A model generated the notes under the pieces. The model ran no database searches and was not told the origin of the DNA. It saw only the letters and a program-made list of their open reading frames with translations. Of a DNA stretch of 64,000 nucleotides, positions 19,043 to 56,470 are shown one piece after another; position 1 is the stretch's first letter, and every line of letters starts with the position of its first letter. The translations under genes and the position numbers were made by a program. This stretch comes from Clostridia bacterium (GTDB taxonomy: Bacteria; Bacillota; Clostridia; Oscillospirales; Acutalibacteraceae). Where the stretch lies: positions 9,739 to 73,738 of the forward strand of contig JAFVIF010000076.1 of the NCBI GenBank assembly GCA_017474125.1, written 5' to 3'.

Positions 19043-19286
19043 TGCATTTTCCTCCTTTTAATTTTCACTTTATTATACAGCTTTTATAACCGATTGTCAA
19101 TTATTCTGCCTGCGCCTGAATTCAAGAGGCGGTTTGAATTTTTTTGCTTCATAAAGCACCTCTGACATTTTTTTAAAGTTTTAAAGCGCAAATTTAAAGT
19201 TTTCCTTTAATTTCACCCTTACAATAAAAGAAAAGCAAGCCTTTTTACAAAATTACTTTAAAAATATGCCAAACGGAGGAAAGATT

Positions 19287-21974
19287 ATGCAAAGCATTTG
19301 GATTGACGCCGCCGAATTTGAAAATAAGGGCGGATGGAAATTTGAGACTCAATTTGTAAGAAGTGTAGGAAGCGCATATCTTTTAGGACTTGATAAACCC
19401 GGTGTTCCCGTAGAGGCTGCTACCACCACCTTTACGGTAAAAGAAGAGGGAAACTACCGTTTCTTTGTACGCACCAAAAACTGGAAATTCCCCGAAGCCC
19501 CCGGTCAGTTTACTCTTGCCGCAGACGGCAAAGAGCTTCCCAACACTTTAGGTAAAATGCCTACTCATAAGTGGTACTGGGAAATTGCAGGTGACCTTTA
19601 TCTTACAAAGGGGGAGCACACCCTTTCTGCCGTTGATAAAACAGGCTGGCTTGCCCGTTTTGCAAGTGTTGTAATAACCAACGATATGGATTTTACCCCC
19701 TCTCCCGAAACCGAGCGTTTCTTAAAGCAGAGAGCCGAAATAAAAGGTATTTCTCCAAAAACTGCCGAGCTGCATTTTGATTACGTTATTATAGGCGCAG
19801 GCCCTGCAGGCATACCCGCCGCTATTGAAGCCGCAAGAAGCGGTCTTAAAGTCGCTCTTGTTTCGGGCAGACCCGCTATAGGCGGTAACGCAAGTGATGA
19901 AGGCACTATCGGTATGGAGGGTGCCGCTTCCAATAATCTCGGTTCATGGGAAGGCGGTATTTTCGGTGAAGTAAGAGCCTTACATATGCCCGGCGGTCTT
20001 ACCTATCAGGCTGCTTTTGAAACCCTTTGCGCAAGAGAAAAAAATCTTACTGTTTTCGTAAACGAGCTTTGTATTGATGCCGAAAGTGAAAACGGACATT
20101 TGATTTCTGCCACAACCATTAATACCATCACCCTTGAAAAGACGAAATTTACCGCCGATTACTTCTGTGACAGCAGCGGTGACGGTTGGCTGGGTTACTA
20201 TGCAGGCGCAGCCTATCGCGTAGGTCGAGAGGCAAGATGGGAATACAACGAAAGTCTTGCTCCCGAAGTACCCGACACCCTTACAATGAGCGGTTGTATT
20301 TGCGGTTGGCAAGAAGATATGCCCAAAATGAGAAGCTATAAGGCTGTAAAGACCGACCATAAGGTTACCTTTACGGCGCCCGATTGGGCAATTAAGCTTC
20401 CCGAAGGCGAAAAGCTTCACCGCGAACCCGTTCAGATTCATTCGAGCTCTTGGTGGCTTGAAAACTCCAACGACCACGATGATTTATGGGATGACGAATT
20501 CACCCGTGACGAAATGATACGTCTTGCCATTGGATATTTCCATTGGATTAAAAATTCGGCTCCCTTAAAACCCCACTTAGCCGAAGAGGTTGATTATTAC
20601 GAATTGGCGGCTCTTGCTCTTCACAATTCCAAAAGAGAATCCCGCCGTCTTATCGGTGATTACGTATTTAACCAGAATGACTGTAATTCGGACAGAGTTT
20701 ATCCTGATACCGTTTCCTATTGCGGTTGGTGTATCGACGTGCATCACCCGAGAGGAATTTATTCAGGTGAAGAAGGCGAATTCCATGCAAATTTACCGGT
20801 TCCCGTATCTCCTCTGCCCTACAGAATTCTTTATTCCAAAAACATTGATAACCTCTTTATTGCCGGCAGATGCTGTTCCGTTTCTCACCTTGGTCTCGGC
20901 ACAGTTCGCGTAGAAGCTACTTTGGCAACACTCGGTCAGGTAACAGGCGCCGCCGCTTATCTTTGTAAAAAGTACGGAACTACTCCCCGTGGAATTTACG
21001 AAAATCATATTAAAGAGCTTCAGCAGCTTCTTCTCCGCCACGATTTAACAATCCCCGGTGTTATAAACGAGGACGAAAAGGATTTGGCAAGAACTGCTAC
21101 CGACAGCGCTTCAAGCGTTGCAAAAGACGTTTATTTCTGCCGTAATTACGGCACAAAGGATTTGTGGATTCCCTTCGAAACCGTAATTTTTGCAGGTCCC
21201 TACTGTGATTCGGCAAAGCATCCTGCAGAATTTTATAAAGCAGAGCTTAAGAATTTGTCAGACAAAGACGTTACCTTTAAGGCGTACTTATGGCAGTATA
21301 ACGACCGAGAAGATATAAACGAAACTATGGAAAAAATTGCCGAATGTGAGATTTCACTTAAAGCAAACAGTGAAGCTTTGGTTGATTTGCCGTTTAACGC
21401 GCAATCCAAGCCGGCTAACTTCGTTGTTTCCTTTGACGCTAACAAAGATATCGCCTGGAGAAGACGTATTCATCCATATGGCTCAGGTGTTGTTTACTTC
21501 CTTAAGGACGGCAAAATAGTTCAAAGCCCTGATGAAACCATGGAGCTGTTCTTTAGCAGTGCGTTACACTTCACGGTTGACGCTTCACCCGAAAACGTTA
21601 TTAACGGCATTAACCGTCCGTTAAACCAAAAACTAAACGGTTGGGCTTCGGAAAAAGGACTTCCCGCCAGTCTTTACCTTAAGCTTAAAGAGCCTAAAGA
21701 AATAAGTGAGGTTAGAGTTACTACACAGATTGATCTTTCTTACCCCAGATTCAACTTCCACCGCCTTACCTCTTCTGTAGGTACTGCAAACGACGTTACC
21801 ATAAGTATCAGAAACGGTGAAAGCTGGCGTGAAGTTGCGCATATAACCGATAACATTCAAAAGCAGATGGTGGCAAGGTTTACCCCCACTCTTGCCGAAG
21901 AAGTTAAAATCACCGTAAACAAATCTTTATTAGACGATGCGGCGCACATAACCGAAGTCAGAATTTACGAATAA
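19287..21974 (+). CDS. FAD-dependent oxidoreductase (FAD_oxidored-type) with an N-terminal beta-rich domain and a C-terminal F5/8 type C (discoidin)-like domain; paralog 1
   Basis: Start set at ATG 19287 (GGAGGA RBS, matching the paralog start). Dinucleotide fold DYVIIGAGPAGIPAAIEAARSGLKVALVSGRPAIGGNAS. C-terminal ...NGWASEKGLPASLYLKL...ISEVRV...ITEVRIYE. Confidence 0.8.
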   Translation: MQSIWIDAAEFENKGGWKFETQFVRSVGSAYLLGLDKPGVPVEAATTTFTVKEEGNYRFFVRTKNWKFPEAPGQFTLAADGKELPNTLGKMPTHKWYWEIAGDLYLTKGEHTLSAVDKTGWLARFASVVITNDMDFTPSPETERFLKQRAEIKGISPKTAELHFDYVIIGAGPAGIPAAIEAARSGLKVALVSGRPAIGGNASDEGTIGMEGAASNNLGSWEGGIFGEVRALHMPGGLTYQAAFETLCAREKNLTVFVNELCIDAESENGHLISATTINTITLEKTKFTADYFCDSSGDGWLGYYAGAAYRVGREARWEYNESLAPEVPDTLTMSGCICGWQEDMPKMRSYKAVKTDHKVTFTAPDWAIKLPEGEKLHREPVQIHSSSWWLENSNDHDDLWDDEFTRDEMIRLAIGYFHWIKNSAPLKPHLAEEVDYYELAALALHNSKRESRRLIGDYVFNQNDCNSDRVYPDTVSYCGWCIDVHHPRGIYSGEEGEFHANLPVPVSPLPYRILYSKNIDNLFIAGRCCSVSHLGLGTVRVEATLATLGQVTGAAAYLCKKYGTTPRGIYENHIKELQQLLLRHDLTIPGVINEDEKDLARTATDSASSVAKDVYFCRNYGTKDLWIPFETVIFAGPYCDSAKHPAEFYKAELKNLSDKDVTFKAYLWQYNDREDINETMEKIAECEISLKANSEALVDLPFNAQSKPANFVVSFDANKDIAWRRRIHPYGSGVVYFLKDGKIVQSPDETMELFFSSALHFTVDASPENVINGINRPLNQKLNGWASEKGLPASLYLKLKEPKEISEVRVTTQIDLSYPRFNFHRLTSSVGTANDVTISIRNGESWREVAHITDNIQKQMVARFTPTLAEEVKITVNKSLLDDAAHITEVRIYE

Positions 21975-22016
21975 TAAAAATAAACGCGGAAATAGAGTCG
22001 TACTCTTAAGGACAGT

Positions 22017-22055
22017 AAAAAAGAAGCACGAAAATTTCGTGCTTCTTTTACTTTT
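22017..22055. terminator. Intrinsic terminator (bidirectional)
   Basis: AAAAGAAGCACGAAA a TTTCGTGCTTCTTTT, followed by a T-rich tail. Confidence 0.75.
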
Positions 22056-22165
22056 GTCTTATACCGTAACAAGCAGGACATTTTGACGCCCAAATGTCAC
22101 TTGTTAGGAGAACCTAAAACCCTCTATAATAATTATTATATTTCAAACTATTGTAATTATTACTC

Positions 22166-22870
22166 TTATTTGTTAATCTCCGCAAGATAACCCGCCGTAA
22201 TAACACCAGACGGCAATGCAATTATTGCAATGCCAAAAGCAGAAGAGATCATTGTAACAATTCTACCTATTGTTGTTACTGGATAAATATCGCCATAACC
22301 AACAGTTGTTAATGAGATGGTCGCCCAATAAATAGCATCAAAAAATGTCTCAAATGATTCCGGCTCAACATTATATATTACAAGAGCAGAAACCAAAATA
22401 TAAGCAACTGCCATTGTCGCAACTGCGGATAAAACCTTTTTCTGTTTTTTAAACACGCTAGCTATAATATCGAAACTTTTTGAATATCGCAAAAACTTGA
22501 AAACACGCAACACCTTTAATGTCCTTAACAGTCTAAACAGTTTCAACAATCTAAAGCCATTATTCAAGACAGAAATAGAAGGCAATATGGAAACTAAATC
22601 AATAATGGCCATTGGTGTAATCGGATAGATAAAGAAAGAAACCACTGACTTTTTAATTTTGAAATCTGCAGTTATCAATCTCAAAAAGTAGTCTAAGATA
22701 AAAATGCTTACAGTTATGTAGTCTATCCACCGAAAAACGGCATTTGTCTCTTTGAAAGCAAGTGGAACAAGGCTTATAACGATAGTTGTCATCATTATAA
22801 AATCGTAAATATTACTCAACTTACTGCCGTTGTCTACCGGCTCAATCACTGAAAATACTTTCTTCCTCAT
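22166..22870 (-). CDS. Voltage-gated-type (6TM) potassium channel
   Basis: S4-like helix RLLKLFRLLRTLKVLRVFKFLR has a positive charge at every third residue. Pore signature TTVGYGD. There is no RCK/ligand domain. AGGTG RBS. Start is 3 nt after the upstream gene's stop. Confidence 0.85.
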   Translation of the reverse strand: MRKKVFSVIEPVDNGSKLSNIYDFIMMTTIVISLVPLAFKETNAVFRWIDYITVSIFILDYFLRLITADFKIKKSVVSFFIYPITPMAIIDLVSILPSISVLNNGFRLLKLFRLLRTLKVLRVFKFLRYSKSFDIIASVFKKQKKVLSAVATMAVAYILVSALVIYNVEPESFETFFDAIYWATISLTTVGYGDIYPVTTIGRIVTMISSAFGIAIIALPSGVITAGYLAEINK

Positions 22871-22873
22871 AAT

Positions 22874-23230
22874 TTACACCTGTTTTGATTTTATCGTTTT
22901 AAGTGATGAAATTAACATTCTGCGAATCGCTCCGCATTCGTTTTGAACATCATTATAAATATCCTTAGTCATGCAGCCCGTCTCAAAAAGAAGTTCTAAC
23001 CAATATTCAGTTTCATAACACTCTTTTTGGGCTATTTCGAGTTTTGAAATAAAATCTTTAGTTCCTTGTGCATACTGAGCTTCGTGTAAATTTGCTCCAA
23101 TAGAGGTCGCTGAGCGAAGCAACTGATTTATTAAAACGGATTCTTTATGATTTGTTTTCATATCGCGACAAAGAAAAACGGTTTTCTTTGCAAACTCTTT
23201 TGCCTTATCTCTTAAAATACTATCCGCCAT
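22874..23230 (-). CDS. Four-helix-bundle protein (23S rRNA intervening-sequence protein / Avd-like family)
   Basis: Start set at ATG 23230 (GAGGTGA RBS). ...LINQLLRSATSIGANLHEAQYAQGTKDFISKLEIAQKECYETEYWLELL... matches the family hallmark (Q-x-x-RS-x-x-SI-x-AN-x-x-E...DF...A-x-x-E-x-x-E-x-x-YWL). Confidence 0.8.
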   Translation of the reverse strand: MADSILRDKAKEFAKKTVFLCRDMKTNHKESVLINQLLRSATSIGANLHEAQYAQGTKDFISKLEIAQKECYETEYWLELLFETGCMTKDIYNDVQNECGAIRRMLISSLKTIKSKQV

Positions 23231-23280
23231 AGTTATCACCTCTAAATCTATTATACATAAAGGATGATAATCTTTCAAGT

Positions 23281-23455
23281 TATATTCCGCCTTTGTCGGA
23301 GTGATATTATTGCCTTACGTCAATAGTGATATTGAAACCTTGCGGTTTCAGTGGTATTTTATTCGCCAATAACTGCCGAAGGCAATATCACTTGGGCTTT
23401 AATCCAAATATCACTGCGTAGCAATATAACTCGCCGTCAGGCGAATAAAACTGTT
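23281..23455. repeat. Heptamer-punctuated mini-hairpin array, copy A
   Basis: Units of ~23-25 nt. Each is a distinct short stem-loop followed by GTGATAT (23301, 23326; GTGGTAT 23351) and, further right, by the reverse complement ATATCAC (23385, 23408; ATATAAC 23424). Positions 23414-23447 are 33/34 identical to 50294-50327. Confidence 0.7.
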
Positions 23456-24498: not shown

Positions 24499-27189
24499 AT
24501 GCAGACCATTTGGATTGACGCCGCCGAATTTGAAAATAAGGGCGGATGGAAATTTGAGACTCAATTTGTAAGAAGTGTAGGAAGCGCATACCTTTTAGGT
24601 CTTAGCAAACCCGGTATACCCGTAGAGGATGCTCAGGCTTCCTTTACCGTAGAGGAAGACGGATACTACCGTTTCTTTGTACGCACCAAAAACTGGAAGT
24701 TCCCCGAGGCTCCCGGTCAGTTTAAGCTTTCTGCCGACGGAGAGGAATTGCCTAATACTTTAGGCAAAATGCCTACTCATAAGTGGTACTGGGAAATTGC
24801 AGGTGACGTTTATCTTACAAAGGGCGAACACACCCTTTCCGCCGTTGATAAAACAGGCTGGCTCGCCCGTTTTGCAAGTGTTGTTATTACCAACGATTTT
24901 GATTTCACCCCCTCCCCCGAAATTGAGCGTTTCTTAAAGCAGAGAGCAGAAATTAAGGGCATTTGCACAAAACCCGAAGAATTACATTTTGATTACGTTG
25001 TTGTAGGTGCAGGCCCTGCCGGTACCCCCGCCGCTATTGAAGCTGCAAGAAACGGCCTTAAGGTTGCCCTTATTTCAGGTAGACCTACCATAGGCGGTAA
25101 CGCAAGTAACGAAGGCACCATCGGTCTTGACGGCGCCGCTTGCCGTAATAAAGGCGCTTGGGAAGGCGGTATCGCCAACGAAATCAGAAATTATCATATG
25201 ACCAAAAAACTCGGTTGGCAGAAATCTATGGAAGCGCTTTGTGAGGAAGAAGAAAATCTTACCGTATTCTGTAGCGAGCTTTGTATAGATGCCGAAAGTG
25301 AAAACGGACATATTATTTCTGCCACCACCGTAAATACCACTACCCTTAAGAGAACAAAGTTTTTTGCAGATTTCTTCTGCGACTGCAGTGGCGATGCTTG
25401 GCTCGGTTATTACGCAGGCGCCGCCTACCGTATGGGCAGAGAAGCAAAATGGGAATATAATGAAGAATTCGCTCCCGAAGTCCCCGACACCCTTACAATG
25501 AGCGGTTGCCTTTGCGACGAGCAGGAGGGTATGCCTCATATGAGAATTTTCCGTGCACGTCCCACAGATAAAGAGGTTGAGTTTACCGCACCCGAATGGG
25601 CTATAAAGCTTCCCGAAGGTGAAAAGCTTCATCGCAAAGTAGCCGGACTTAGCGGTGCTATGTGGTGGCTTGAAAACTCTAACGACCACGACGACCTTTG
25701 GGATGATGAATTTGCCCGTGACGAAATGGTGCGCTTGGGACTCGGCTACTTCCATTGGCTTAAAAATTCCGCACCGCTAAATGATGAACTTGCATCTAAG
25801 GTTAAATACTACGAGCTTTGCGGTATTGCACTTCACAACTCAAAAAGAGAAAACCGCAGACTTATAGGCGACTACGTATTTAATCAGAACGACTGTGTTG
25901 CAGACAGAGTTTATCCCGATACTATCTCTTATTGCGGTTGGTGTATTGACGTACATCATCCGAGAGGAATTTACTCAGGCGCTGAAGGCGCATTCTATTC
26001 CAATGCATGTATACCCTGCTGTCCGCTTCCCTACCGTATTATTTATTCAAAGAACATTGACAACTTATTTATGGCAGGACGTTGCTGTTCCGTTTCTCAT
26101 ATAGGTCTTGGCACCGTAAGAGTTGAATCTACCATTGCTACCTTAGGTCAGGCAACAGGCGCTGCCGCTTATCTGTGCAAAAAGTACGGTACCACCCCGA
26201 GAGGAATTTACGAAAGCCATATTAAAGAGCTTCAGCAGTTACTTGTTCGTCACGATTTAACAATCCCCGGTATAGAAAACGAAGACGAAAAGGATTTGGC
26301 AAGAACCGCTACGGTTACCGCTTCAAGCGTTGCCGACGACCTTTATCTTTTATCGGTTCACGGCACAAAGGACGTATGGGTTCCCCTTACCACCGAAATT
26401 TATTCAGGTCCTTACTGCCACGCCGCCACCTATCCTGCCGAGTTCTACAAGGCTGAGCTTAAGAATTTAAGCGACCAAAAGGTTACCTTGAAGGCTAAGC
26501 TCTGGCAGTATAATCAAAAGGAAGATATCAACGAAACCATTGAGCAAATCGGAGAATGCGAGATTACTATTGAACCCGATTGCGAAACAATTGCAGACCT
26601 TCCCTTCGGCGTTAAATCAAAAATGGATAACTTTGTTGTTTCATTCGAACCTAACGAAAAAATCGCCTGGAGAAGACGTATTTATACCGTTGACGGCTCG
26701 GCTGTAGTTTACTATACCGAAGACGGTAAAATAGTTCAGCATCCAAAAGAAGGTATGGAGCTTTACTTTAACAGCGAAATAAACGTTTTGGCAGACGCTT
26801 CTCCCGAAAACGTTATTAACGGCGCAAACCGTCCCGTTGGCAACACCCTTAACGGCTGGGCTTCAAAGAGAGGACTTCCCGCAAGTCTTACCTTAAAGCT
26901 TAAGGAAGCAAAGGAAATAAGCGAAGTACGTATAACAACTCAGGTTGACCTTTCCTATCCACAGTACTGCTTTACAGGTGACACAAAATCAATAGGCACC
27001 GCAAGTGACGTAACGATAGAGGTTAAAAAAGGCGAAAATTGGTGCGAAGTTGCCCATATTAAAGATAACGTTAAAAAGCAGATGGTGGCCCACTTTACGC
27101 CCACTCTTGCAGAGGAAGTAAGAATCACCGTAAATAAGTCCATATTAGACGATGCGGCTCATATTACCGAAGTAAGAATTTACGAATAA
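24499..27189 (+). CDS. FAD-dependent oxidoreductase with an N-terminal beta-rich domain and a C-terminal discoidin-like domain; paralog 2
   Basis: Same architecture as 19287-21974 and collinear over the full length. DYVVVGAGPAGTPAAIEAARNGLKVALISGRPTIGGNAS. GGAGG RBS. Confidence 0.8.
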   Translation: MQTIWIDAAEFENKGGWKFETQFVRSVGSAYLLGLSKPGIPVEDAQASFTVEEDGYYRFFVRTKNWKFPEAPGQFKLSADGEELPNTLGKMPTHKWYWEIAGDVYLTKGEHTLSAVDKTGWLARFASVVITNDFDFTPSPEIERFLKQRAEIKGICTKPEELHFDYVVVGAGPAGTPAAIEAARNGLKVALISGRPTIGGNASNEGTIGLDGAACRNKGAWEGGIANEIRNYHMTKKLGWQKSMEALCEEEENLTVFCSELCIDAESENGHIISATTVNTTTLKRTKFFADFFCDCSGDAWLGYYAGAAYRMGREAKWEYNEEFAPEVPDTLTMSGCLCDEQEGMPHMRIFRARPTDKEVEFTAPEWAIKLPEGEKLHRKVAGLSGAMWWLENSNDHDDLWDDEFARDEMVRLGLGYFHWLKNSAPLNDELASKVKYYELCGIALHNSKRENRRLIGDYVFNQNDCVADRVYPDTISYCGWCIDVHHPRGIYSGAEGAFYSNACIPCCPLPYRIIYSKNIDNLFMAGRCCSVSHIGLGTVRVESTIATLGQATGAAAYLCKKYGTTPRGIYESHIKELQQLLVRHDLTIPGIENEDEKDLARTATVTASSVADDLYLLSVHGTKDVWVPLTTEIYSGPYCHAATYPAEFYKAELKNLSDQKVTLKAKLWQYNQKEDINETIEQIGECEITIEPDCETIADLPFGVKSKMDNFVVSFEPNEKIAWRRRIYTVDGSAVVYYTEDGKIVQHPKEGMELYFNSEINVLADASPENVINGANRPVGNTLNGWASKRGLPASLTLKLKEAKEISEVRITTQVDLSYPQYCFTGDTKSIGTASDVTIEVKKGENWCEVAHIKDNVKKQMVAHFTPTLAEEVRITVNKSILDDAAHITEVRIYE

Positions 27190-49228: not shown

Positions 49229-49996
49229 ATGGATTTCACGAATAAAACAGCAATATCAACAGGCGCCGCAAGCGGTATGGGACTTCTTTTTGCGCAAAAT
49301 TTCGCCGACCTTTACGGAAACGTAGTTATGTGCGACATAAATGAAGAAGTGCTTAACGAAAAGGTTAAAGAAATTAACGCAAAGGGTAAAGGAAAAGCCG
49401 TTGGCGTAGTTTGTGACGTGCGTGATTATAATCAGGTTTGCGCCGCAAGAGATAAAGCTGTAACCGAATTCGGCAGTATTGACGTTATGGCAAACTTTGC
49501 AGGCGGATATGCGCTCAGAATGCTGAAGGTTGATACACAGCAGTATCCCGAATTTCCCGACGTGCCCATTGAGGTTTTCGATTGGGGACTTGACGTAAAC
49601 CTAAAGGGTCCCTTCTATTTTGCTCACGCTGTACTCAGCCAAATGAGAGAGCAGAAAAGCGGACTCATTATAAATATAGGTTCAATTTCAGGCGCCGAGG
49701 GCAGCTCGTTTGGAATGGAATACCCCACCGCCAAAGCGGGACTTATGTACGGACTTACAAAGTCTATTGCACAGTACGGCTCAAAGCACGGAATAAGATG
49801 TGTTTGTGTTTCCCCCGGACCTGTGCTCACCCGTGAAGCTATGGCGAATATGAAAACCCTTATGGGCAGAGCCGCCGAGCCGCAGGAAATAATTGATTTA
49901 TGCTTATTCATAGCATCTGATAAAGGACAGTTTATTAACGGCGAAAACATTATGATTGACGGCGGACGAAACGCCGCACCGCGCTGGTGCCGATAA
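49229..49996 (+). CDS. SDR family oxidoreductase
   Basis: TGAASGMG cofactor motif, a catalytic Y-x-x-x-K (YPTAKAG), and a PGPV motif. Confidence 0.85.
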   Translation: MDFTNKTAISTGAASGMGLLFAQNFADLYGNVVMCDINEEVLNEKVKEINAKGKGKAVGVVCDVRDYNQVCAARDKAVTEFGSIDVMANFAGGYALRMLKVDTQQYPEFPDVPIEVFDWGLDVNLKGPFYFAHAVLSQMREQKSGLIINIGSISGAEGSSFGMEYPTAKAGLMYGLTKSIAQYGSKHGIRCVCVSPGPVLTREAMANMKTLMGRAAEPQEIIDLCLFIASDKGQFINGENIMIDGGRNAAPRWCR

Positions 49997-50112
49997 AAGT
50001 GCGTTGTTCTTATCGGAGAAAATAGAATTCTTTTAAATTCAGCTAAGAACCGGCAAGTGCATTTGTAAGTACAAATGCATTTGGGCAGTAGCCCAAACCC
50101 ACTAACAACAGA

Positions 50113-50154
50113 AAAGAGAAGATTCGTATCATAACGAGTCTTCTCTTTCTTTTT
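50113..50154 (+). terminator. Intrinsic terminator, 117 nt downstream of the SDR gene
   Basis: AAAGAGAAGA ... TCTTCTCTTT followed by CTTTTTG. Confidence 0.7.
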
Positions 50155-50163
50155 GTCTGATAA

Positions 50164-50360
50164 GTGATATGCTGACTAAAGTCAGCGTGATATTTTCGCT
50201 TTGCGAAAGTGATATGAAACCTATCGGTTTCGTGATATTCTATTCGCCCATAAACTTGCGAAGCAAATATCACTCGGCGTAAGCCGAATAACACTGCGTT
50301 GCAATATAACTCGCCGTCAGGCGAATAGAGTTGCGTGATACTCTTAACGGAGTATCACGC
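50164..50360. repeat. Heptamer-punctuated mini-hairpin array, copy B
   Basis: GTGATAT at 50164, 50187, 50209 and 50232 (spacing 22-23 nt). Each is followed by a different perfect hairpin (GCTGAC-taaa-GTCAGC, TTTCGC-ttt-GCGAAA, GAAACC-tatc-GGTTTC). Further right come ATATCAC (50267), ATAACAC (50288) and ATATAAC (50304). The element ends in an 11-bp hairpin, GCGTGATACTC/GAGTATCACGC. Confidence 0.7.
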
Positions 50361-50382
50361 CAAGCCGGCAAGGGGTTTTTCT

Positions 50383-51960
50383 TTAGCCGAGAGACTGTTT
50401 TTTGCTTGTAACAACCTCGTGGTCGTAGCATTCAAATTTTTCATCAACCTTTTCGGGGAGAGTTTTCTGAGTCAGCAAGCTGACAATGGGGACTAAAATT
50501 AAACCGCCCACCATTGCGAATACACCCGAATAAAGGGAATTTGTAAATATAAAGCTGATTACGGGTATGCCTGCAGCCTTTATCCAGCCAAGGCTTACAC
50601 AAAGCTGAATTATTTCAAGACCTACGCCGAAAATAAAGCTTGCGGCAACCGCGGCCTTGGTAGTCTTTTTCCAGTAAAGACCGTACATAAAGGGGGCGAG
50701 GAAGGCGCCTGCAAGGGCACCCCACGAAACACCCATCATTTGAGCAATAAACATATTGTTCGACCAAACAGAATCCTTAAGAATGGCGATAATTGCGGAA
50801 ACGGCGATAAAGAATACTATAAAGAGTCGCATAATAAGTACGCTTCTTTTTTCGCTGATTTCCTTTTTTAAGCTCGGCTTTACAACATCAAGGGTAATGG
50901 TAGAAGCGGAGGTAAGCACGAGGGAGGAAAGAGTAGACATTGATGCCGACAGCACAAGCACTATAACGAGAGCAACGATAACGGGAGCTAATTCGCCGAG
51001 CATGGTAGGAACAACCTTATCGAAAAGGACCTTGCCGCCGTTTATAAAGCCGCTTGATACCATTTTATCTTCATATAAACGACCGAAGCCGCCGAGGAAA
51101 TAGCAACCGCCTGCAACTATAATAGCAAACAGGGTGGAAATTACGGTGCCCTTTTTAATGGAGGCCTCATCCTTTATAGAGTAGAACTTACCTACCATTT
51201 GAGGCAGTCCCCAGGTACCGAGCGAGGTAAGCATTACGACAAAGAAAAGGAATACGGGGTTGGGGCCGAACATAGCGGTATACTGCGTTCCTGCGCTAAC
51301 TCCCAAGGCTTCAACTGCGGCGTTAAAGCCGCCGTTTTCCATTAATACAGAGGCAATAACGGCAATGATACCCACAAGCATTATAACGCCCTGAATAAAA
51401 TCGTTAACGGCGGTAGCCATATAGCCGCCGAAAATTACGTAGATACCCGTAAGGATTGACATAACCACAACTATTACCCAGTAATCAACGGCAAAAACGT
51501 TATTGAAGAGAGAGGATAGTCCGTTATAGAGGGATGCGGTATAGGGAATGAGGAATATGAAGGTTATAAAGGAAGCCACTACCTTTAAGGTTTTGGAATC
51601 AAAACGCTTTTCAAAAAAGTCGGGCATTGTTTTACTGCCTAAGTGCTGTGTCATAACTCTTGTTCTTCTGCCCAGCACGCTCCAAGCAAGCAAGGAGCCG
51701 ATAAAGGCGTTACCTAAGCCAATCCAGGTGGAGGCAAGACCGAAGTTCCAGCCGAACTGCCCTGCATAGCCTACGAAGATAACAGCCGAAAAATAAGAGG
51801 TGCCGAAGGCGAAGGCGGTAAGCCACGGGCCTACGTTTCTGCCGCCCAGCACAAAGCCGTCAACACTTACCGCATTCCTTCTGCAATAAAATCCAACCCC
51901 TATCATAAGGCCGAAAAAGCAGAGTAGCAACGGTATTGTAATAATTACTGTAGTTGTCAT
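50383..51960 (-). CDS. Sodium:solute symporter (SSS) family transporter
   Basis: 525 aa with about 13 TM helices and an SSS-like pattern (GGRNVGPWLTAFAFGTSYFSA...). GAAAGGG RBS. Confidence 0.8.
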   Translation of the reverse strand: MTTTVIITIPLLLCFFGLMIGVGFYCRRNAVSVDGFVLGGRNVGPWLTAFAFGTSYFSAVIFVGYAGQFGWNFGLASTWIGLGNAFIGSLLAWSVLGRRTRVMTQHLGSKTMPDFFEKRFDSKTLKVVASFITFIFLIPYTASLYNGLSSLFNNVFAVDYWVIVVVMSILTGIYVIFGGYMATAVNDFIQGVIMLVGIIAVIASVLMENGGFNAAVEALGVSAGTQYTAMFGPNPVFLFFVVMLTSLGTWGLPQMVGKFYSIKDEASIKKGTVISTLFAIIVAGGCYFLGGFGRLYEDKMVSSGFINGGKVLFDKVVPTMLGELAPVIVALVIVLVLSASMSTLSSLVLTSASTITLDVVKPSLKKEISEKRSVLIMRLFIVFFIAVSAIIAILKDSVWSNNMFIAQMMGVSWGALAGAFLAPFMYGLYWKKTTKAAVAASFIFGVGLEIIQLCVSLGWIKAAGIPVISFIFTNSLYSGVFAMVGGLILVPIVSLLTQKTLPEKVDEKFECYDHEVVTSKKQSLG

Positions 51961-56167: not shown

Positions 56168-56203
56168 ATTTCTTGTCTTAAAGACGTTTTAAATGCGATG
56201 ATC

Positions 56204-56470
56204 AGAAAGTAGTAAATTCGGAAAAGCTTTTAAGAGAGTTGTCGTTCGGTGCGAGACAATAGGCAAGTACGTTTTGAATTCATTCTGTTAGCAGTGCACT
56301 GAACTAAGCTTTGCTTAAAGTAGGCTGCAACGGGTGTTCCCGTAACAGAACTAAGGTATGTTAGTACCTGAAAAGGCCGTTACCGTGAGATAACGGCGAA
56401 CTGAGGTGGTACCACGGGATTTCGATTTTCTCGTCCTCTGTATTCTTATCGGAATGCAGAGGATTTTTTT
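56204..56470 (+). promoter_or_regulatory. T-box riboswitch leader with a UUC (Phe) specifier, controlling paaK-ACT
   Basis: Stem I spans 56204-56293 (TGC-GATGAT-CAGAA-AGTAG ... GAA-TTC-A-TTCTG-TTA-GCA). AGAGAG box and GGTGCGAGAC distal loop are present. T-box sequence AACTGAGGTGGTACCACGGG lies at 56399-56418. A terminator stem at 56435-56462 is followed by T7. Confidence 0.85.

Follow-up and report, generated by a model that had tools for sequence, protein, structure and literature searches.

The Gut-1 motif was reported by Weinberg et al. in 2010 (PMC2864571) from 43 human-gut metagenome sequences, with neither an organism nor a function, and was rated a likely non-coding RNA (ncRNA; 'Y' for RNA) on the strength of covariation; within the literature that we searched, only this discovery paper mentions it. 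Proteins of the PF05635 family are known from the intervening sequences (IVSs) of 23S rRNA, where an S23p open reading frame (ORF) lies within the helix-45 loop, downstream of tandem heptamers of variable number, and where a role of the ORF in mobility was proposed long ago (PMC4990558). PF05635 ORFs also occur within rRNA insertions of Candidate Phyla Radiation bacteria (bioRxiv 10.1101/2024.02.27.582315). S23p/Avd-type proteins form positively charged pentameric barrels, and the Avd pentamer clamps an 11-bp stem-loop with flipped-out bases, employing all five protomers (bioRxiv 10.1101/2023.10.23.563531). Here we describe copy B, a ~367-nt element in a 64,000-nt stretch (the window) of contig JAFVIF010000076.1 from a Clostridia bacterium of the Acutalibacteraceae (assembly GCA_017474125.1), which contains Gut-1 arrays and whose longer relatives carry a PF05635 gene. 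We consider it moderately likely that copy B is a gene-less derivative, similar to a MITE (miniature inverted-repeat transposable element), of a small mobile element that resides in terminator loops of gut Clostridia, and that its hairpin modules are candidate cis sites of the PF05635 four-helix-bundle (4HB) protein.

Copy B (49998-50364, minus strand) fills the convergent intergenic gap between an SDR gene (49229-49996, plus strand; stop codon at 49994-49996) and a Na+/solute symporter gene (50383-51960, minus strand; stop codon at 50383-50385). An Rfam scan at gathering thresholds identified RF01706 (Gut-1 RNA) at 50162-50243 on the plus strand at 51.7 bits (gathering score, 50), and a scan with an E-value threshold revealed a second Gut-1 match on the opposite strand (50262-50333, minus strand, 45.5 bits). 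In nine relatives, the homologous arm 1 scored 56-65 bits against the same model. Copy B displays three consecutive hairpins with GUGA[A/U]AU linkers and covarying stems, which are the hallmarks of Gut-1, and the published seed rows themselves show an ATATCAC-type arm in their 3' flanks, an arm that was left out of the motif. The novelty implied by the original prediction, which had been made from the letters of the window, is thus lost: the array is a known Rfam family, an outcome that the prediction itself had named as refuting it.

The individual elements of that prediction fared better. GTGATAT occurs at 50164, 50187, 50209 and 50232 on the plus strand, with ATATCAC at 50267-50273; the three hairpins GCTGAC/taaa, TTTCGC/ttt and GAAACC/tatc are perfect, and ATAACAC and ATATAAC stand at 50288 and 50304. 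All of these lie where they had been placed, and far beyond chance: the heptamer occurs 16 times in the window against 4.2 expected, and the heptamer-N13-19-heptamer pattern gives 5 matches against 0.02 expected from shuffles. The central hairpin, the 11-bp hairpin, the palindrome and the TTTGGGC hairpin were likewise recovered, as were a terminator at 50113-50148 and the GAAACC-ttgc-GGTTTC unit of the second array of the window, copy A. The regular 22-23-nt heptamer spacing holds for the left arm of copy B, but family-wide the distance is about 16-29 nt, and the conserved unit (about 49998-50364) exceeds the proposed extent of 50040-50360.

Read on the minus strand, copy B starts with the left-end (LE) terminal hairpin, GCGTGATACTC-cgttaa-GAGTATCACGC (50333-50360), in which 50333-50343 pairs with 50350-50360 over 11 bp. 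Arm 1 follows (50262-50333, minus strand), with GT[GT]NTAT heptamers and a short hairpin after each, in the orientation of the Weinberg/Rfam Gut-1 seed. It is enclosed by a long-range helix (50239-50329) between TCTATTCGCC (50239-50248) and GGCGAATAGA (50320-50329), which competes with a local TCGCC-gtca-GGCGA hairpin. A central hairpin, closed by GTGATAT/ATATCAC, joins both arms (50232-50273; 50232-50247 with 50258-50273), and arm 2 (50162-50243, plus strand), with four heptamers and the three perfect hairpins, reads as ATATCAC plus hairpin in the orientation of the element. The internal bidirectional intrinsic terminator (50105-50156) comes next, followed by the tail hairpins (50054-50096), namely the palindrome TGCATTTGTA/TACAAATGCA (50054-50067 with 50070-50083) and TTTGGGC-agta-GCCCAAA, and by the long imperfect hairpin GTTCTTATCGGA...TCAGCTAAGAAC of the right end (50006-50050), before the terminus ...AACGCACTTT (49998). 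The array thus shares its ~367-nt repeat unit with the terminator and with the three hairpins that had been listed upstream of it, which the original prediction had not recognised.

Folding on both strands bears out the description of a fully structured, non-coding hairpin array: the 367 nt fold far below shuffles as RNA (z = -12.8 and -11.3) and as DNA (z = -9.8 and -10.2). The suggestion that structure is selected, initially raised by two units differing in their loops, also stands up well. Among 187 unique inter-heptamer segments, 181 form hairpins, 149 of them perfect, and these segments are under strong selection for pairing. The long-range helix around arm 1, of 11 bp in its general form (TT-N-TATTCGCC with GGCGAATA-N'-AA), carries one variable position that is Watson-Crick paired in 29 of 31 unique copies, with C-G, A-T, T-A and G-C all represented, while shuffled controls gave a mean of 9.5 and a maximum of 18 paired copies. 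A heptamer-heptamer 'ladder' between the arms was considered and is not predicted by minimum-free-energy folds.

Copy B is one of many dispersed copies with sharp boundaries. When the conserved 18-mer TATTCGCCTGACGGCGAG was scanned over one genome per species, at least 119 stretches were found. Among the matches listed, the carriers comprise at least about 60 species-level metagenome-assembled genomes (MAGs) of gut Clostridia, which account for nearly all matches (Oscillospiraceae, Acutalibacteraceae, Christensenellaceae, Faecousia) and come from human and ruminant samples; several of these MAGs are multi-copy, many matches lie at contig ends, and a few in unrelated taxa are chance matches within genes. 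More than 12 gut Clostridia MAGs carry the ~367-nt element at above 90% identity with unrelated flanks (for example, copy B and locus L221 are 92% identical across 366 nt; related loci are given here by their L numbers). In an alignment of 15 copies from different MAGs, chosen by the shared terminal hairpin of copy B, conservation stops sharply at both ends, at positions corresponding to 49998 and 50364 of the window, and the number of arm units varies among copies.

Contigs with the window's own SDR gene break within the element in three other samples. We note that another sample contains the same SDR and symporter proteins on separate contigs (L241:3770-4783 and L326:4079-4591), each of which runs through a variant array, with the third hairpin TGAAGCCGCAAGGCTTCA, into different sequence; this pattern is due to a rearrangement at the element or, alternatively, to a chimeric assembly induced by the repeat. 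Truncated family I elements, that is, elements with the ends of copy B, were also seen as tandem ~350-nt composite repeats (L231:1700-2900 and L126:6400-7000), fused to another GC-rich repeat, GGGGAGGATTCC...GGGACGCCCCTCCCGGGGCGTCC.

The second array of the window, copy A, lies ~27 kb from copy B, shares its heptamer, and belongs to a 1.46-kb module (21992-23453, minus strand) made up of an array, a promoter, a 4HB gene, a K+ channel gene and a terminator. Its double hairpin array (23279-23453, minus strand) matches Gut-1 on both strands (23380-23453, minus strand, 46.2 bits; 23239-23337, plus strand, 27.6 bits). Between the array and the 4HB gene stands a sigma-70-like promoter, TTGAAA-17-TATAAT (23250-23278, minus strand), with 11 of 12 consensus matches, which is conserved in L329, L338 and L340. 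The 4HB gene (22874-23230, minus strand) encodes 118 amino acids and is assigned to PF05635 (23S_rRNA_IVP; Pfam, 1.4e-26) and TIGR02436 (105 bits), and its product is related to PDB 2RLD (1e-28). The cargo gene downstream codes for an Ion_trans_2/K+ channel-like protein (22166-22870, minus strand), and on the other side the stop codon of an AraC gene abuts the array. The module has identical boundaries in an Oscillospiraceae MAG (L191, 99.5%) and an Acutalibacteraceae MAG (L171, 95.8%).

The linkage between array and 4HB gene extends beyond copy A. At L196 (79% protein identity), the array and the 4HB gene are followed by a different cargo gene. Close homologues of the 4HB protein number in the thousands and lie mostly on short contigs; three of three that were sampled are preceded by a full double array and promoter, as solo genes among unrelated host genes. 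A second 4HB subfamily, 45% identical to the first and also very abundant, has the same architecture with a different word: its array consists of three ATATCATCA and three to four TGATGATAT units with a 23-25-nt period, and was found in at least three contexts with varied downstream genes. The repeat word changes along with the 4HB protein.

Several observations on these gene-carrying elements deserve mention. The genes that follow 4HB are very different from one another and often overlap it by 4 nt (L345-L359, L239:221-700, L196 and window 22166-22870); they encode a K+ channel, an AAA_15/AAA_21 ATPase, a 149-residue protein of no family, a lipoprotein-like protein and a Zn-ribbon-like protein of 86 residues, and the unit of array, promoter and 4HB gene behaves like a portable leader for varied cargo. 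The ribosome-binding region of 4HB holds the heptamer or a near copy of it (GAGGTGATAAC at window 23232-23250; GAGGAAGTGATATTATG in the second subfamily, L345:1980-2000), which may represent an extended Shine-Dalgarno sequence or a site of autoregulation. In the second subfamily, two loci (L355:1750-2000 and L359:170-420) have an element that starts immediately behind the CCA end of a tRNA-like sequence, a different one in each, and a terminator hairpin common to both, AAAAATACTGCAGAAAA...TTTTCTGCAGTATTTTTTT, comes next. In copy A orthologues the LE hairpin shows compensatory changes (GGCGTTG/CAACGCC, GGGGTTG/CAACCCC and TTGCGT/ACGCAA; L329, L332, L171, L196), and individual unit hairpins have decayed: TTGGAC/GTCCAA, which pairs perfectly in L332, contains two non-Watson-Crick pairs in the window (23385-23414). 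Finally, two paralogous FAD-dependent oxidoreductase-like genes of ~900 codons (19266-21974 and 24499-27189, both plus strand) enclose the AraC gene together with the copy A module, which suggests a local duplication around the copy A insertion.

The comparison with L340, a 2-kb element flanked by AAAACCACCCTTAGCG and CGCTAAGGGTGGTTTT, relates copy B to these gene-carrying forms. The copy B arrays match L340 2295-2475, immediately upstream of the promoter and of the 4HB gene itself (gene at 2501-2872), and the copy B tail (TTTGGGC hairpin and TGCATTTGTA palindrome) aligns to L340 2873-2927, from the 4HB stop codon on; in L340-L342 the sequence homologous to the tail hairpins follows the stop codon directly. 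The two aligned blocks are separated in L340 by about 400 nt, which hold its promoter and gene, and in copy B by about 60 nt, which form the bidirectional terminator and occupy the position of the promoter and 4HB gene of full-length elements. Since the array and tail blocks flank the 4HB gene in L340, copy B is a derivative of a 4HB-encoding element that has lost the gene. Copies A and B are therefore gene-carrying and gene-less forms of one mobile element family, a relationship that the original prediction had missed.

The sites of insertion were analyzed with 27 full-length copies from two subfamilies, family I having the ends of copy B and family II a different terminal hairpin and tail. 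In 20 of the 27, the two flanks, which lie 325-400 nt apart, are inverted complements of each other and include an A run and a T run, while control segments taken 40 nt further out gave no inverted-complement match in any of the 27. These flanks look like the two halves of bidirectional intrinsic terminators of the host, and intact terminators of the same type adjoin SDR orthologues. No more than 3-5 nucleotides of the loop remain at the junctions, and no target-site duplication was found at the 20 junction pairs. The gene-carrying elements L171, L191 and L340 also lie within a host hairpin whose stem closes the element; the L191 module is flanked by the terminator halves AAAAAACTCCCGTGGC|..|GCCACGGGTGTTTTTG, and that of L171 by different ones, AAAGACGGATGG|..|CCCATCCGTCTTT.

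A full-length element consists of an LE hairpin, a double array of two inverted arms, a promoter and the 4HB gene, to which cargo may be added, and it closes with a terminator and the right end. Such elements reside in the loop of Rho-independent bidirectional terminator hairpins of the host, without target duplication, as shown for relatives, a location that the original prediction had missed; their own terminator would let transcription from both neighbours still end. The heptamer-hairpin modules would be cis sites of the 4HB protein, which is probably pentameric and would be supplied in trans to gene-less copies; recognition could take place on DNA hairpins of either strand, extruded or single-stranded, and this interaction would be needed for the propagation or maintenance of the element. 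Gene-less copies would then keep their arrays because these are needed in cis for propagation, and not for regulating a promoter that has been lost.

Several points weigh against this proposal. The flanks of copy B itself pair over TGCCG/CGGCA alone, its right end abuts the SDR stop codon, and neither copy of the window shows clean terminator-half flanks; L338 and L343 have no clear hairpin flanks either. Copy A lacks the LE hairpin that is present in L191, L171 and L332 (a sister strain), and which the lineage of the window has lost. No empty site was found for any insertion among 80 metagenomic SDR orthologues and in exact-protein look-ups: the orthologues (73-88% identity) have different neighbours and so provide no filled/empty comparison, exact matches of the SDR, symporter and channel proteins gave filled or broken sites only, and the exact AraC protein had none on record. 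Because no empty site was recovered, mobility is deduced from shared boundaries combined with unrelated flanks. The sample behind the array-4HB linkage is small, about 8 independent contexts. The 4HB protein is a 118-residue helical bundle without known catalytic activity, its family assignments (PF05635/TIGR02436) include no catalytic domain, and no transposase, recombinase or reverse transcriptase was present among the called neighbours of the contexts examined; another factor must therefore carry out the DNA chemistry. Binding of 4HB to the modules is putative, and the known ligand of Avd is RNA and not DNA. Lastly, relative to neighbouring genes, the elements are co-oriented in 22 tandem contexts and anti-oriented in 11, with 13 convergent and 5 divergent cases, and the excess of co-orientation with the upstream gene fits a transcribed RNA as well.

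Other routes of dispersal were also considered. Plasmid searches gave no match. A single human-faecal phage record (MT835815.1:5074-5168) aligned partially, with 79% identity across the Gut-1 arm, and the 18-mer was present in one of 2.9 million viral contigs (IMG/VR; L327), so that phages are not the main carriers; the general heptamer pattern was set aside for viral contigs in favour of the 18-mer, being too noisy and hitting mostly coding tandem repeats. A long autonomous version with a transposase was not recovered, as no family I copy has its ends parted by a gene. The SIG642 'contig-end' family turned out to be another ~0.4-kb non-coding repeat and not an autonomous form, the genes beside the L124 and L227 arrays are housekeeping genes, and the stretches between array pairs in L178 and L184 contain no transposase.

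The strongest alternative is that Gut-1 is indeed a structured ncRNA, either an sRNA or derived from a 3' untranslated region, produced at this locus by read-through from the symporter gene to the internal terminator and serving as a stabiliser or a protein platform, possibly for 4HB. It draws on the 'Y' rating of 2010, on the terminator that directly follows the arrays in the orientation of the element, on the read-through into the arrays that is expected when an insertion splits a host terminator, on the co-orientation bias and on the binding of an RNA stem-loop by Avd. A third of the tandem contexts are nevertheless anti-oriented, we found no promoter-like site upstream of or within copy B, and the promoter of full elements is located downstream of the arrays. 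Both strands are matched by the covariance model, and non-Watson-Crick pairs on the Rfam strand are rare, with 9 G.T and 10 A.C among about 1070 pairs and essentially no excess of G-U. When each arm is read on its ATATCAC strand, the mismatches are 14 G.T and 5 A.C and the loops are GNA-/GNRA-like. A single asymmetric unit thus makes up both arms, placed on opposite strands, and one transcript cannot satisfy the two.

The terminal loops speak to the same question. The LE loop reads TTAACG in 13 other copies and its exact reverse complement, CGTTAA, in copy B; a second terminal loop is AAGC in 5 copies and GCTT in one; and in L145, of family II, the whole imperfect terminal hairpin is flipped, bulge included. 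Such loop flip-flop is an event of a DNA palindrome. Taken together, the strand, wobble, flip-flop, promoter and orientation evidence favours an element that acts at the DNA level, with which occasional transcription of the arrays by read-through, as may occur, is compatible. We therefore regard a primary role as an ncRNA as rather unlikely.

It is less probable still that the arrays are duplex operator or iteron sites, at which a regulator, possibly 4HB itself, would bind phased heptamers and control a promoter, an origin or partition, the hairpins being incidental. The left-arm heptamers do lie 22-23 bp apart, or about two helical turns, and the -35 box of the 4HB promoter directly adjoins the arrays of full elements. 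Helical phasing is, however, not conserved with a family-wide unit spacing of about 16-29 nt, and the inter-heptamer segments vary but stay perfectly self-complementary, which speaks for selection on hairpins rather than on duplex DNA. Moreover, gene-less copies without a promoter keep their arrays and are widely spread. An iteron array was rejected in view of this spacing, the dispersed chromosomal location and the missing plasmid match. An analogy with integron attC sites (GTTRRRY/RYYYAAC) was discarded on inspection, as the GTT and AAC words come in the opposite order and the units are flanked by direct, not inverted, repeats.

Slightly lower again we place the possibility that the modules are substrates of a Y1 (HUH) transposase encoded elsewhere and similar to a REP-associated tyrosine transposase (RAYT), with 4HB as passenger cargo, in the manner of repetitive extragenic palindromic (REP) sequences and bacterial interspersed mosaic elements (BIMEs) or of IS200/IS605-derived repeats (PMC2817692, PMC3333891). 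Like these, the elements described here have short palindromes with a conserved word on their 5' side, terminal or subterminal hairpins, clustering in alternating orientation, an extragenic location at the 3' ends of genes and no target duplication, and recognition of single-stranded hairpins is plausible; in family II, the ends are similar as inverted repeats of a hairpin (1 of 2000 shuffles as good). Unlike them, the hairpins within one element are all different, the linked gene encodes a four-helix bundle, and there is no conserved target tetranucleotide at the left junction. A tblastn search with an IS200 TnpA query found no Y1 transposase below E = 1 in 1.16 Mb of flanks, which is a weak test. 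The array-4HB linkage, which holds over two subfamilies with co-varying words, is left unexplained by a passenger gene.

That the 83-residue ORF (50043-50294, minus strand) encodes a genuine small protein is very improbable, despite a stop-free stretch kept in five of seven full copies, and we reject it as coding, in agreement with the original prediction: no Pfam family was found, 1- or 2-nt indels between copies put its C-terminal half in different frames, one copy is interrupted, its internal ATG, missing from several copies, falls in the variable loop of the terminator, and its N-terminal part is translated repeat.

Coming back to the terminator-loop element with 4HB cis sites, we tentatively extend it to a broader possibility, namely that the PF05635/TIGR02436 4HB protein is the subunit that recognises sequence and structure in widespread mobile cassettes that invade hairpin loops, of which rRNA IVSs and the terminator-loop elements would be special cases. 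Each subfamily would read its own 'word plus hairpin' (GTGATAT; TGATGATAT), Gut-1 would be the recognition array, and movement would take place without a canonical transposase; the flip-flop hairpins hint at a hairpin-based DNA intermediate.

Two further features of the window lie apart from these elements: an isolated perfect palindrome, GTGATATCAC (1094-1103), far from any array and probably due to chance, and a T-box leader (RF00230, 119.9 bits; 56189-56441, plus strand), unrelated to copy B.

Gut-1 has stood in Rfam since 2010 as an orphan 'sRNA' from metagenomes and can now be placed in identifiable organisms, where we infer that it would be the cis-acting array of a mobile element, tied to a specific and very abundant protein family, PF05635 (23S rRNA IVS protein, Avd-like). 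This points to IVS-like selfish elements that, beyond rRNA helices, have colonised terminator loops as well, a niche of low cost because the element brings its own terminator. In practice, metagenome assemblies break at these repeats, which also mark the junctions of rearrangements, and annotation based on Rfam will call them sRNA genes on either strand. The roles of S23p/4HB and of Gut-1 both become questions that can be addressed at the bench.

The motif itself is that of PMC2864571, with at least three short hairpins, GUGA[A/U]AU linkers and an origin in gut metagenomes. In Rfam it figures as a 77-nt stand-alone sRNA (type 'Gene; sRNA') known from metagenomes only, with no function given, whereas here it is one arm of a two-armed array within a 0.37-2-kb DNA element of named MAG lineages, matched by the model on both strands, located upstream of a promoter, linked to PF05635 and embedded in terminator loops. 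The motif was thus already known; what appears to be new is its nature, the protein that partners it and its niche in terminator loops.

With regard to MITEs, copy B and its kin are small, non-coding and multi-copy and have ends in common with a longer, gene-carrying relative. This relative encodes no transposase, and there is no target duplication. Terminal inverted repeats were rejected for family I, copy B included, as its ends show no significant similarity (equally good scores arose in 299 of 2000 and in 941 of 2000 shuffles). The Avd protein of diversity-generating retroelements shares the PF05635-like pentameric barrel fold and sets a precedent for the recognition of a hairpin together with single-stranded bases. 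Here, the putative ligand is instead a multi-module array, and the listed neighbourhoods contain neither a reverse transcriptase nor a pair of template and variable repeats; such a retroelement was rejected, with no reverse transcriptase among the called neighbours in 8 contexts. The BOX/SPRITE repeats of Streptococcus pneumoniae (PMC3049150) are likewise composite, interspersed and strongly folding, with variable internal tandem modules (boxB) and an enrichment downstream of genes, and SPRITE resembles a terminator and may act as one. BOX differs in having terminal inverted repeats, in being thought to be mobilised by an insertion-sequence transposase (PMC3049150), and in that no four-helix-bundle gene is linked to it and insertion into terminator loops is not described.

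The rRNA IVSs, as in Coxiella burnetii (PMC4990558), are selfish insertions too: they occupy a host hairpin's loop, have a long stem as their boundary, and come with a PF05635 four-helix-bundle ORF, ORF-less versions and, in Coxiella, variable tandem heptamers upstream of the ORF. The elements described here carry a PF05635 ORF or are ORF-less derivatives, and a host-hairpin loop harbours 20 of the 27 gene-less copies as well as L171, L191 and L340. They differ in that the host hairpin is an intrinsic terminator between protein-coding genes and not helix 25 or 45 of 23S rRNA, in having their own promoter and terminator and often cargo genes, and in that heptamers and hairpins alternate along their two inverted arms; excision by RNase III is not implied. 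The systems closest to the Gut-1 elements are the S23p-carrying rRNA IVSs, followed by BOX/SPRITE and REP/BIME-RAYT.

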